From assembly GCA_030603365.1 (NCBI GenBank), contig JAUVXV010000003.1, positions 128,001 to 192,000 of the forward strand: a stretch of DNA of 64,000 nucleotides. The letters are read 5' to 3'. The stretch's first letter is position 1; every line of letters begins with the position of its first letter. Below, one piece after another: positions 2,840 through 7,940 of this stretch. This DNA comes from Candidatus Heimdallarchaeota archaeon (GTDB taxonomy: Archaea > Asgardarchaeota > Heimdallarchaeia > Heimdallarchaeales > Heimdallarchaeaceae). The translations under genes were made by a program, and so were the position numbers. The notes under the pieces are model-generated. The model was not told where the DNA came from. It was given only the letters and a program-made list of their open reading frames with translations, and ran no database searches.

Positions 2840-3021
2840 TTAAATCATCTTACTAGGGATTATATTGTTTGTTCCCACCAGAAGATAGATGATAACTATC
2901 TTAAAAAATCTATGCAATTTAAACTCAGGTGCTTTACATAGGGATATTTCAAATTTTCATTTCAATCTAAAGACTTTTAAAACAGATTTTCTCTTTTCAG
3001 TCTGTCAAATAGGTGTCATAA

Positions 3022-4011
3022 ATGACCAAAAGTGAGCTACTAAAATTAGCTGGTATTGGACCTAAAGCTGCAAAAACGCTAGAAGATTGTGGTTACAATA
3101 CTATAGAAAAAATAGCTAAAACTACAGCTGATGAGTTATCAGAATTACCGGGTATAGGAAAAGCAACTGCTGAAAAATTAATTCAAAGTGCAAAGGAAAT
3201 GGTTCCTGCAGCTAAACCTGCAGCTAAACCTACTGCTAAAATCCCTACTGCTAAAATCCCTACTGCTAAAAAGCCTACTGCTAAAAAGCCTACTGCTAAA
3301 AAGCCTACTGCTAAAATCCCTACTGCTAAAAAGCCTACTGCTAAAATCCCTACTGCTAAAAAGCCTACTGCTAAAATCCCAACAGCCAAGAAAGAAATCT
3401 TAAAGGAAACAATTCCAAAGCCAATAACTGTTAAAGCCGCTACAAAACCCGTTGCTAAACCTTCCGAACCTCTGCCTTCCGTTAAGAAACCCGCTGCTAA
3501 ACCTGCTGCTAAACCCGTTGCTAAACCTCCAGCAAAACCCGTTGCTAAACCTCCAGCAAAGAAACCTGTAGCCATAACACCTGCTGCTAGAACCGTTACT
3601 AAAAAGCCTGCTGCTTATGCGAAACCAAAAATTTCGAATGCTGCAAAACGTGCAATTGAATTAGCTCCTGAGATGAGAATTATTAAACAAAAAAGAGCAG
3701 GTAAAAAAACTAAAGTAGTCAAGAAAGAGAAGATTTCTCAAACTTATGGGATTGTCAACAGTATTGTACATGACCGTACAGGAAAATCATCTAATAGATC
3801 AATAGTTGTGAAGCTTTATAATACAGAAATTCCTCTTCCTAAATATCTGGGAAGGAAAGTTACTGTGTCTTTTCCAAATTCATCTAAACAACTTACAGGT
3901 GTAGTTTCCAAGATTCATGGAAAAAAATCCTCAGTGGATAAGACTATAATAATAAGGTTCAAGCAAGGAGTAAGTCCTCATATTATTACTGGCAGAGCTA
4001 TATTTGCATAA
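3022..4011 (+). CDS. HhH domain + Lys/Ala/Pro/Thr-rich (histone H1-like) linker + C-terminal ribosomal eL33 (L35Ae)-like domain
   Basis: Two HhH motifs (LAGIGPKAA, LPGIGKATA); PTAKK/PAAK repeats; the C-terminal GIVNS...YLGRKV...LTGVVSKIHG...IIRFKQGV matches the archaeal L35Ae pattern by eye. Confidence 0.75.
   Translation: MTKSELLKLAGIGPKAAKTLEDCGYNTIEKIAKTTADELSELPGIGKATAEKLIQSAKEMVPAAKPAAKPTAKIPTAKIPTAKKPTAKKPTAKKPTAKIPTAKKPTAKIPTAKKPTAKIPTAKKEILKETIPKPITVKAATKPVAKPSEPLPSVKKPAAKPAAKPVAKPPAKPVAKPPAKKPVAITPAARTVTKKPAAYAKPKISNAAKRAIELAPEMRIIKQKRAGKKTKVVKKEKISQTYGIVNSIVHDRTGKSSNRSIVVKLYNTEIPLPKYLGRKVTVSFPNSSKQLTGVVSKIHGKKSSVDKTIIIRFKQGVSPHIITGRAIFA
3229..3378 (+). repeat. Coding tandem repeat, 10 x 15 bp CCTACTGCTAAA(ATC/AAG) = PTAK(I/K)
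   Basis: Read directly from the sequence; a degenerate 11th unit follows. Confidence 0.97.
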
Positions 4012-4052: not shown

Positions 4053-4418
4053 ATGGTAAGGAAAAGAGATTTAATAACCTCTGCAAGAATTGTCTCTTAC
4101 ATAGGAGGAGTTCTTTATATTCTGGGAGCTGCTTTATTATTCCTTAACCACTTTATACCAGCTTTTGAGTTAGGATATGTTGGAACACGAGTAATAATCT
4201 ACTTATTTGGTTTATCTTTTAATGGTGATATTCTAGTTCTTGCCATAGTTGGAGTAGTAATAGGTGGCGGTATAATCATCTTACTAGGAGCAGAAACCTC
4301 ACATCTTCTTACAGGAATTCTTCTAATTGTACTAGCTGCTATAGGACTTGGAATTCCTGCAATACCAACTTTTGCTGGTGCAATATTATATCTGATAGCT
4401 TATACAAAGAAACGTTAA
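4053..4418 (+). CDS. Small Gly-rich multi-TM membrane protein (paralog 1)
   Basis: About 4 hydrophobic segments; similar to 4537..4893. Confidence 0.75.
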   Translation: MVRKRDLITSARIVSYIGGVLYILGAALLFLNHFIPAFELGYVGTRVIIYLFGLSFNGDILVLAIVGVVIGGGIIILLGAETSHLLTGILLIVLAAIGLGIPAIPTFAGAILYLIAYTKKR

Positions 4419-4536: not shown

Positions 4537-4893
4537 ATGGCAAGGAAATCATCATGGGCTACTTGGGGTAGAATCCTTGGTGCTATAGCAGGTATACTTT
4601 GGATTGTATCAGGTGTCCTACAACTTATTGGAGATATTCTTGGCGAGAGTTTTACAAATATAGTCAACACAGCTGCATGGCTTAATGGCCTTGGAGGAGT
4701 AATAACTGATTTAATTTATGCAATAGTAATTATTGTTATAGGTGTATTAGTTTTCTTATTAAGTGTTGGAAGATTTGGAATAAAATACCTCATCATAGGA
4801 ATTCTCTTGATTGTTTTTGCTATTATCGGAAGTGGACTTCCAGCAATTTTAGCTTTAATTGGTGGAATCTTCTACATAATAGCCGGAGTATAA
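4537..4893 (+). CDS. Small Gly-rich multi-TM membrane protein (paralog 2)
   Basis: MARK...GRILG vs MVRK...ARIVS; GILLIVFAIIGSGLPAI vs GILLIVLAAIGLGIPAI. Confidence 0.75.
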   Translation: MARKSSWATWGRILGAIAGILWIVSGVLQLIGDILGESFTNIVNTAAWLNGLGGVITDLIYAIVIIVIGVLVFLLSVGRFGIKYLIIGILLIVFAIIGSGLPAILALIGGIFYIIAGV

Positions 4894-4961: not shown

Positions 4962-7940
4962 TTGAAGAACATGTCTGGTACTGGTCAACAACCTCCAGCT
5001 CTGTTTTTAGGTACAGAGCATTCAACAGATGAACCCGTTTATTTGCCATTAAAAGCACTTAATAGACACATTAGTGTTTTTGGACAATCTGGTAGTGGTA
5101 AAACCGTAGCTTGTAAAATTTTGATAGAAGAAGCAGTTAGAAATGACATCCCAGCTATTATTATCGATCCTCAAGGAGATATCAGCAGTTTAGCAATGGT
5201 TGAGGATTATGAGAAGCTAAAACCATATGGGATTTCAGAAGAGTTCTACAAACAATACAAGGATAAAGTAGAAGTAGTTATTTTTACTCCAGCATCAGAA
5301 AAAGGGATTCCTCTATCTATTAATCCTCTAATTATGCCTCCACAAGAACTTGACAGAGAGGAGAAAATTCTAGCAATAGATGGTATTGCTACAACTATGG
5401 CAAATGTATTAAGATACAAACTTAATTCAGAGAAAGGAGGGGCAGTTAAAGCTTATCTTGTATCTCTTTTTGAGCAATGTTTGGAAAAAGACATTTTGAT
5501 TGCAGATTTCGAGATGTTGATTGATTTAATAAAAACAGAGGAAGCTTATCTATCCGATAGCATCCGATCACTATTGTCAACAAAAGAGAAAGAATCATTG
5601 ATTAAGAGAATAAAATCAGTAAATGTAGGTGCTTCTTCGCTTGTATTCAATCTAGGTCCTAAATTATCTGTTCAGACATTAATTAGATCAACAAATCCTG
5701 ATAAAATAAGAATAGCGATTATATTTCTAAATACTCTTTCTAGTCTGAGATTAAGGGAATTGTATATTACAACTCTAGCCCAGAGTCTTTATACTTTCAT
5801 CCGCTCTAATCCTTCAGATGATCCTCAACTAATATTCTATATAGATGAATTAGCAGGACCACCTCAGCTTATACCTCCTCATCCTAAAAACCCTCCAACA
5901 AAACAATGGCTTCAGTTGCTGTTTAAACAAGGTCGTAAATATGGTTTATCAATGCTAGTTGCTACTCAGAATGTTAGTGATGTTGATTACAAATCCTTTG
6001 GACAAGTGAGCACCTTTCTTTTTGGTAGATTTGTAACTCCCCAAGATTTGAGAATTGTGGATAAAATGTTACAATCTCATCCTGAAGCTAGATATATTGT
6101 TGATCAGCTTCAAAAATTCAGAAGCGGTGAATTCTATATTCTTTCACCAGACAATTTCAAAGCTCCCGTTCACATTTTAACCAGAAGATTATATTCGGTT
6201 CATAAAACACTGTCAGATGAAGATGTAGCAAAAATGTATGAATTGCCTCCCCCAACGTTGTGTAAACAAATTGGAGATTATGATCACGATATAGATTCAG
6301 TAGATTTTGAAGACATAGAAAAGGAGTTAAATTTAGAAGATTTAGAGAAAGAGCTATCAGCTATTCGAAAACTGACTAAGACTTCTAGTCTATTAGATAA
6401 GCAAGTTGATATCGAACCTGAAGAAGATGAAGATGAACTAGAAACAGACGAAGAATCAGCAGAAAAAGAAGAGCTTACAATAAGTGAACCAGTTGATGAG
6501 ACAGTAATAATCGAGTCAATAGATCTGAGTCATATCGTTGGTTCAATGGGTGAACAGTTTCTTAAGTATGAACCTGTTGATTTTAAAGAACTTTTACAGA
6601 AGTTTTTTGGAAGAGAAAAAATCAAATACCTTGGTACTGAAAATCTTGAATTAGCTTATCTTCCTTTCCTCTACTTGGATTTCCAAATTAAAGCTGTTCG
6701 ACGAGTAAAGGTTCATTATGCTAATGCAGAAAGGTGGGAAGATATAGCTTTAGAGCAGCCGATAAAACGTATTTTTCCTCTAATTGATAGAATTGAATAC
6801 AGTGATGGTGAAAAGATTTGGAATGAAACAAATATTCCAATTCAACCTGAAGAGATTTTCGAAGAATTAATCTCAATTCTTCCAATGAAGAATTTGGGGA
6901 GTTTATTTGCTCCTTCTTCATCTAATATCAAGAAACTGGAGGTTCAACGTAGTCCCGAGAGCATCCTAGAATCTTTCCATGATGTGCTATTAATAGACCA
7001 AACTTTCTATGTAGATACTTGGAGCAAGGCAATTAACGAAGGTTTGCTTAAAATAGAAGATGATCATGAAGCGGAAATTAAAAGTTGGATGGATGAACTG
7101 GAAAAAGAAAGAGAACAAATATGGACTATAATTGATGATAAAAGGAAGAAAGTCAAGCAATTTAAAGCTAAAATTGAAGAAGCAAAAGCTATTTACGTTA
7201 CCCTTAAGCCTCTAATGGAAGATAAATTCAAATATAAGAGTACAGCTGAAGTCGGTAATTATAATAAAGCAGTGGAAACAATCAAATTTGGTCCAGAGGT
7301 TGTGAAAAATTTCGTTAAGGATGTAGAAAAGGGTATAACTAGGATTAAAGAGATAGACAAGATGTTTAAAGCTTCTCCAAAAGTAAAATTGTTAGATGAG
7401 AGCAAGCACATCATCAATAAAAGAGATTTTATTACTCCAAAGTCATCAGAGATGAAAGAAATCTATGCTGCATTAGTTTATATTCCTGTTTCTTTAGCTA
7501 AGATATCTATTGTTGACTCTCAAGGAAACAAAATTCAAGTAAATGGTATCGCTGAATCTGTTCTAGGCACAGAGGTTCATCTATTATGTGATGTGTGTTT
7601 AAGTAAGCATTCTGCTAAAATGCTCTTCGTTTCAACTCCTGATGTTTGTTCAGTCTGTGGGAAGGTTCTATGTCAAGATCATACTATTGTTGACAGCGTA
7701 ACAAAATCGATTTTATGCTCTGAACATGCAGTTGTCTGTTCTTATTGTCAAAATGTAGTTTCATCAGAGAAAGGAACAAAGTGCGATTTCTGTGATGACT
7801 ATGTGTGTGAAGAACATATATTCCGATGTTCGTCATGTAAGAAAGTTCTTTGTAAGAAACATTCAAAAGAGATAGAGAAGAAAGGGATGTTTAAAGAAGA
7901 AAAACTTTACAAATGCCCTGATCATGTCAAAAGGAAGTGA
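4962..7940 (+). CDS. HerA/FtsK-superfamily ATPase (DUF87/DUF853-like) with acidic linker, coiled coil and C-terminal multi-Zn-finger region
   Basis: RHISVFGQSGSGKT (Walker A), IIDPQGD, FYIDE (Walker B), QGRKYG...ATQ; repeated CxxC...CxxH at the C-terminus. Confidence 0.88.
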   Translation: MKNMSGTGQQPPALFLGTEHSTDEPVYLPLKALNRHISVFGQSGSGKTVACKILIEEAVRNDIPAIIIDPQGDISSLAMVEDYEKLKPYGISEEFYKQYKDKVEVVIFTPASEKGIPLSINPLIMPPQELDREEKILAIDGIATTMANVLRYKLNSEKGGAVKAYLVSLFEQCLEKDILIADFEMLIDLIKTEEAYLSDSIRSLLSTKEKESLIKRIKSVNVGASSLVFNLGPKLSVQTLIRSTNPDKIRIAIIFLNTLSSLRLRELYITTLAQSLYTFIRSNPSDDPQLIFYIDELAGPPQLIPPHPKNPPTKQWLQLLFKQGRKYGLSMLVATQNVSDVDYKSFGQVSTFLFGRFVTPQDLRIVDKMLQSHPEARYIVDQLQKFRSGEFYILSPDNFKAPVHILTRRLYSVHKTLSDEDVAKMYELPPPTLCKQIGDYDHDIDSVDFEDIEKELNLEDLEKELSAIRKLTKTSSLLDKQVDIEPEEDEDELETDEESAEKEELTISEPVDETVIIESIDLSHIVGSMGEQFLKYEPVDFKELLQKFFGREKIKYLGTENLELAYLPFLYLDFQIKAVRRVKVHYANAERWEDIALEQPIKRIFPLIDRIEYSDGEKIWNETNIPIQPEEIFEELISILPMKNLGSLFAPSSSNIKKLEVQRSPESILESFHDVLLIDQTFYVDTWSKAINEGLLKIEDDHEAEIKSWMDELEKEREQIWTIIDDKRKKVKQFKAKIEEAKAIYVTLKPLMEDKFKYKSTAEVGNYNKAVETIKFGPEVVKNFVKDVEKGITRIKEIDKMFKASPKVKLLDESKHIINKRDFITPKSSEMKEIYAALVYIPVSLAKISIVDSQGNKIQVNGIAESVLGTEVHLLCDVCLSKHSAKMLFVSTPDVCSVCGKVLCQDHTIVDSVTKSILCSEHAVVCSYCQNVVSSEKGTKCDFCDDYVCEEHIFRCSSCKKVLCKKHSKEIEKKGMFKEEKLYKCPDHVKRK

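Follow-up and report, generated by a model that had tools for sequence, protein, structure and literature searches.

In a 64,000-nucleotide stretch of a Candidatus Heimdallarchaeota genome (GenBank contig JAUVXV010000003.1, positions 128,001–192,000; hereinafter the window), we found a gene for a three-part protein in which a tandem helix-hairpin-helix (HhH) head is joined through a long basic linker to a divergent version of the large-subunit ribosomal protein eL33 (L35Ae). The gene is a single unbroken open reading frame, and we put a probability of roughly 0.6 on its product being a protein of the 50S subunit with an rRNA-binding tail and a head that would grip nucleic acid away from the particle. 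The initial annotation of the window had offered either a ribosomal protein of this kind, its nucleic-acid-binding head held on a tether, or a repurposed eL33 paralog. The former, like the eL33 identity, is supported as far as sequence allows. The latter finds no support: a six-frame search recovered no other eL33 in the genome, relatives have one copy each, and the copies group by family in a tree.

Architecture of the gene and its upstream region

2964–2982, forward strand: archaeal BRE/TATA-type promoter element, 40 nt 5′ of the start codon
3011–3015, forward strand: Shine-Dalgarno-like AGGTG, with the GGT core invariant in 15 relatives
3022–4011, forward strand: whole HhH-linker-eL33 gene (329 aa, pI 10.5; full-length AF2 model)
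3022–3201, forward strand: tandem HhH head, aa 1–60, with two intact Gly-x-Gly loops and a near-zero net charge
3205–3620, forward strand: disordered K/A/P/T linker with tandem arrays (12-bp, 3205–3240; 15-bp × 10, 3229–3380; 12/24-bp, 3487–3560)
3412–3423, forward strand: invariant IPKP island, aa 131–134 (26 of 26 sequences from the genus and close relatives)
3634–3732, forward strand: conserved proximal segment from the alignment, with a short helix (aa 206–214) and a Lys/Arg run (aa 221–237)
3739–4008, forward strand: divergent eL33/L35Ae β-barrel, aa 240–329 (by ortholog profile, fold and motifs)

The BRE/TATA-type element is invariant at 16 of 19 positions across 15 relatives from two genera, with diverged flanks. 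It is a general promoter: we rejected the idea of a ribosomal-protein regulon since comparable motifs also precede EF-1A-, TBP-, Alba- and eS19/uS19-like genes (gene identities by eye). The eL33 gene lies outside the ribosomal operons, its synteny is kept within families only, and in this genome ribosomal genes could not be told from the background by codon usage.

The C-terminal barrel is a divergent eL33

The eL33 identity proposed for the C-terminal ~90 aa holds, and the L35Ae profile search suggested as a check on it gave a divided outcome: as a single sequence this region has no L35Ae match in Pfam, but a profile built from 27 orthologs matches Pyrococcus eL33. The barrel alone matched the NCBIfam L35ae model with an e-value of 0.0011 (18.9 bits versus a cut-off of 85), and its single-sequence matches in the PDB were non-significant, though to eL33. 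With the 27-sequence profile, the best 25 PDB matches are all eL33 (best e-value 1.3 × 10–8, Pyrococcus eL33); 24 of the 27 members match PF01247 at e-values of 0.1 or below, and a profile of this ortholog type retrieved many L35Ae-type proteins of canonical length (80–100 aa) from 1.8 billion representatives. AF2 modeled this domain as a β-barrel (pLDDT 84.5), which is also confident at aa 242–328 of the full-length model. Its 50 top-ranking hits in Foldseek all belong to ribosome chains or to L35Ae (TM about 0.6–0.7), and the eL33 chains that head this list also head the sequence search. VIA-align placed eL33 at Z scores of 8.3–8.9, tied with unrelated barrels; the fold alone is thus unspecific, and the sequence evidence carries the assignment. 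Taking profile and fold together, we judge that the barrel is eL33.

Its structural residues are kept (Y275-L276-G277, G293, H299-G300, F313 and P319). Of Tyr44 and the conserved Gly69–Pro90 motif (yeast numbering), equivalents of Y44, G69, H75, G76, F85 and P90 are retained, and G79 gives way to a longer loop. In yeast eL33, Y44, G69 and G76 matter for biogenesis of the 60S subunit (PMC9700599). SYRR, a motif of basic character in a hairpin close to the barrel's N-terminal end, is replaced by hydrophobic-His-Asp throughout the window protein's family and retained in families f3, f7 and f25. The barrel has a net charge of +12, and within the genus its mean identity of 58% and dN/dS of about 0.26 (a rough value, as many pairs are saturated) indicate that it is still under purifying selection. 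With archaeal eL33/L35Ae (PF01247, NF003326; Pyrococcus furiosus 1SQR and 4V6U/9QF4 chain Bc) it thus shares the fold, the YLG and G...HG...F...P motifs, the basic charge, the single copy and the C-terminal end point. Unlike the canonical form, which has about 87 aa and no N-terminal addition, the window protein carries about 240 added aa, lacks SYRR, and scores below the cut-offs of both families.

A single, vertically inherited copy

A separate canonical eL33 in the genome, for which the initial annotation had advised a search, was not found by an exhaustive six-frame search with filters off and two eL33 profiles (the genome is 89% complete). A search of the same genome with Pfam PF01247 was likewise empty, but its controls were silent too. 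Across the class there is one eL33 copy per matched genome, with a single exception that is an apparent mis-binned contig: a Gerdarchaeota bin (L031; G077:C109) has a second, Heimdallarchaeaceae-type eL33 together with the neighboring genes of that family. In trees of the eL33 domain the copies group by family, and the branch leading to the window protein's family is the longest in the first tree, at 2.3 changes per site. One close homolog is labeled Heimdallarchaeaceae. As it is the only eL33 found in its genome and single-copy across the order, the window protein is, on this evidence, an ortholog rather than a spare paralog, and the genome's one eL33, vertically inherited. Of the neighbors of eL33 on the subunit, eL20 is encoded in the genome, and eL14 was matched weakly but at its normal length.

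The head is an intact (HhH)2 domain

The tandem HhH assigned to the N-terminus was recovered by Pfam HHH_5 over aa 4–59 (e-value 4.8 × 10–16). The full-length AF2 model shows five helices at high pLDDT, and in the family alignment G11, G13 and G44 are invariant and G46 is nearly so. With two Gly-hydrophobic-Gly hairpins in a five-helix domain, the head is of the (HhH)2 class. Gly-hydrophobic-Gly loops followed by a lysine are the backbone-binding signature of HhH domains. Within the genus the head has a mean identity of 73%, above that of the barrel, and a dN/dS of about 0.20, and since these values (rough, with many pairs saturated) point to purifying selection on an intact (HhH)2, the head is in all likelihood functional. 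A homodimer prediction for the head scored 0.09, which we count neither for nor against dimerization.

The closest solved relatives of the head profile are the N-terminal domain of RadA (1PZN, the best match, e-value 9.5 × 10–15) and haloarchaeal eL32 (e-values 10–12 to 10–10). In RadA/Rad51 the homologous (HhH)2 is joined to a recombinase ATPase, and in the window protein to a ribosomal barrel. The haloarchaeal eL32 proteins (NF009401; Haloarcula marismortui 1JJ2/1S72, entry 9L94) have the same order of parts, with a homologous N-terminal HhH, a linker and a large-subunit protein, on a different carrier that is a neighbor of eL33. Their linker, which we take to be acidic, differs from the strongly basic one here.

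These data also bear on an unlikely alternative, namely that the head is a protein-protein module comparable to the acidic repeats of NusA or the C-terminal domain of the RNA polymerase α subunit, carried on a ribosomal protein, and that it would serve to connect the ribosome with RNA polymerase, with an assembly factor or with another ribosome. In keeping with this, the head is neutral (pI 6.2), the genus shows strong conservation of its surface, its profile also matches the C-terminal repeats of NusA (e-value 10–8), and heads occur on proteins of both subunits (eL33 and uS4; see below). Yet RadA and eL32 outscore NusA by four to seven orders of magnitude, and both Gly-hydrophobic-Gly loops as well as the lysine, the signature of backbone binding, are conserved in the window protein's family.

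The linker combines a variable spacer with a conserved barrel-proximal segment

Residues 61–237 form a basic, mostly disordered linker made of 12- and 15-bp repeats, with a net charge of +44 over its whole length. The claim of about 150 aa of K/A/P/T low complexity was accurate: residues 63–204 are 82% Lys/Ala/Pro/Thr with a net charge of +35, and pLDDT falls below 50 across most of aa 64–199 of the full-length AF2 model. In the genus the linker varies from 101 to 177 aa, with a mean identity of 51% and a dN/dS of 0.41 (again rough, given many saturated pairs). The helix at aa 206–214, by contrast with the disordered stretch, is predicted at a pLDDT of about 80. By its conservation pattern, the linker is divisible into a conserved barrel-side part and a variable spacer part.

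The description of the repeat as histone-H1-like fits its composition alone: the HC2 model of Pfam gave 23.5 bits, short of its cut-off of 40, an H1 globular domain is lacking, and the Pfam search of the 329-aa protein matched no linker-histone family. Extensions of this composition are found on insect ribosomal proteins: Drosophila RpL22 and RpL23a and mosquito RpS6 bear H1-like K/A/P-rich extensions of several independent origins (PMC11764897, PMC1934995). Their likeness to the window protein is compositional, both being K/A/P-rich low complexity on a ribosomal protein; the window protein has a folded terminal head, whereas none is described for the insect extensions in these two studies. 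Fly L23a with its H1-like extension functions in yeast ribosomes (PMC1934995).

One could accordingly suppose that in this family the protein works wholly or mainly off the ribosome, in an H1-like compaction of DNA or RNA. Loss of the SYRR arginines and the long branch, both specific to the window protein's family, would fit this, as would the linker charge, the failure to find eL33 in 22 Hodarchaeota genomes (see below), and the in vitro DNA binding of the N-terminal part of fly Rpl22 (PMC8701128). We regard it as quite improbable, for the window protein is the only eL33 found in the genome, its barrel is under purifying selection (dN/dS as above), and the head is shared with sister families whose arginines are preserved. 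Moreover, native Rpl22 was not detected on chromatin in the same fly study (PMC8701128), and an Alba-like gene and one that is probably histone-like are already present in the genome (both by eye).

Distribution of the fusion

The survey of Asgard archaea proposed in the initial annotation placed the fusion in the window's order and in two further Asgard lineages, f25 and f8 (we took family names from the NCBI labels of other proteins, in part by deduction). In the order, all 29 untruncated eL33 copies, from three families, bear an HhH; five copies without HhH were left out of this count as they are cut by contig ends, and some copies have two heads. The f25 version serves as a bridge form, its HhH-fused eL33 passing the Pfam cut-off (51.8 bits), and NCBI names such fused proteins L35ae. 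Family f8 is probably Odinarchaeia; the hairpin glycines of the head are degenerate in these Odin-like copies. Three f8 proteins (L175, L177, L178) are HhH-linker-eL33 fusions of about 216 aa that fall below the Pfam cut-off. A basic tail without HhH is found on eL33 in Gerdarchaeota (12/12) and family f17 (8/8), and plain eL33 of about 90 aa in most other Asgard families. Short, divergent eL33 versions, mostly missed by Pfam, occur in families f21, f24 and f26 (L176, L180, L182–L190). A further set of proteins (P0102, P0113, P0159, P0205, P0206, P0221) includes a 605-aa eL33 with four HhH heads, two eL33 to which a short HhH is joined with hardly any linker, and, from other archaea, canonical eL33 that ends in a PAKK-type tail at the C-terminus. 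A single origin of the fusion was neither demonstrated nor rejected (p-AU 0.154); the tree has at least two changes, a result made unreliable by the long branches.

We rejected co-evolution with a supersized ES39 as a general cause of the fusion, as ES39 length and eL33 form mismatch in Lokiarchaeota and Odin: ES39 is long in the former and short in the latter (PMC7594248), and most sampled non-Heimdall Asgard families have a short eL33, with the fusion in Odin-like genomes. ES39 was not assembled in the present genome.

Pfam and three custom profiles with a loose first filter did not find eL33 in 22 Hodarchaeota genomes, 20 of which yielded uS4; with family f6 added to Hodarchaeota family f5, the count is 22 (+2) genomes (G047–G070). 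Inspection of the HhH proteins of five Hodarchaeota-side genomes revealed no hidden eL33 among them. Given the 22 genomes, eL33 may be dispensable in the class. This would matter if Hodarchaeota are the sister group of eukaryotes, in which eL33 is regarded as universal. eL14 and eL20 were found in both eL33-negative Hodarchaeota-side genomes tested.

The head as a putative portable module

The eL33 fusion, which the initial annotation had implied to be a special case, is in this respect one of several. In the same genome, uS4 has a K/P/E repeat linker of ~125 aa and a C-terminal HhH (G000:C1:124573–125655; L127:1574–2656, forward strand), and this uS4 head is seen in 11 copies of the genus, most others being cut by contig ends or gaps; it is absent from complete copies in other genera. 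An f25 genome (G137), whose eL33 also has an HhH, codes for an eL13 with a K-rich linker and C-terminal HhH (L244:1501–2178, reverse strand). Since the arm is also grafted on uS4, eL13 and haloarchaeal eL32, it is better viewed as a portable module than as a device specific to eL33. The genome's own eL32 lacks an HhH. By eye, we also noted repeat-derived charged tails without a head on uS3, uS11, Rpo5-like, Rrp41-like and RadA proteins of this genome (G000:C1:107551–108594, 125643–126338, 464258–465175 and 219434–220420; C16:6137–7306), the Rpo5-like protein having a long N-terminal addition, and acidic tails on uL24 and eL32.

That K-rich repeat tails are thus found on uS3, uS4, uS11, Rpo5-like, Rrp41-like and RadA proteins raises the further alternative of the appendage being a by-product of a lineage-wide growth of repeat tails on informational proteins, with little function of its own. 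The freely varying linker length and the tail-only and tail-less eL33 of other Asgards would agree with it. However, conservation is higher in the head than in the barrel (73% versus 58% identity), the head is kept in 29 of 29 complete copies from three families, and the linker contains invariant islands; we therefore hold this alternative to be very unlikely.

Proposed role on the ribosome

From the anatomy, orthology and conservation described above we infer both incorporation into the ribosome and nucleic-acid binding. On the preferred reading, a 50S protein with an rRNA-binding tail and a nucleic-acid-gripping head, the barrel would take up the eL33 position on the solvent-facing side of the 50S subunit, beside uL13, eL14, eL20, eL32 and ES39; the proximity of this site to ES39, uL13 and eL14 is documented (PMC7594248). 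The conserved helix and Lys/Arg run would lie along nearby rRNA, like eukaryotic extensions, and the repeat part would act as a flexible leash. At its end, the head could grip nucleic-acid backbone without sequence specificity, be it rRNA during assembly, mRNA, a neighboring ribosome or DNA, such that the ribosome would gain a weak, tethered nucleic-acid-binding arm. Precedents are the homologous N-terminal HhH of haloarchaeal eL32 chains in ribosome structures and the activity of H1-like-extended fly L23a in yeast ribosomes (PMC1934995). Counting against this reading are the replaced SYRR, the changed Gly-79 loop, the longest branch of the tree, the neutral head, the degenerate hairpin glycines of the Odin-like copies, the position of the gene outside the ribosomal operons and the failure to find eL33 in 22 Hodarchaeota genomes. 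A broader idea, which we put forward as speculative and rather unlikely, is that Asgard ribosomes bear one or more long tethered HhH arms (on eL33, uS4 and eL13, with up to four heads on a single eL33), by which they would be physically joined to DNA, to nascent transcripts or to one another; if true, this would be an undescribed way of organizing translation in the lineage closest to eukaryotes.

In a 2023 review, the distribution of eL33 is given as unknown for Heimdall- and Odinarchaeota (PMC9932298). We attribute this to the fusion together with the divergence, close relatives being annotated only as HhH proteins. HhH-bearing ribosomal proteins and ribosomal proteins with H1-like tails are already known, and some fused copies already have the NCBI name; we found no description of the HhH-linker-eL33 fusion in a literature search whose coverage left out most subscription journals. 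The fusion makes a definite prediction for whichever Heimdall ribosome structure is solved first, extends to Asgard archaea the long basic extensions usually called a eukaryotic trait of these proteins, and raises the testable question of the repeated grafting of one small domain on ribosomal proteins.

Gene neighborhood

Downstream of the eL33 gene, the window codes for two related small hydrophobic proteins (4053–4418 and 4537–4893, forward strand), followed by a HerA/DUF87-like ATPase of 992 aa whose tail is Cys-rich (4962–7940, forward strand); outside the family this gene order is not kept. Some 1.7 kb ahead of the window lies a gene for a protein of 471 aa that combines a P/E-rich linker with an HhH at its C-terminus (G000:C13:124931–126343), and a similar protein is encoded close to the eL33 gene in another genome (G045).
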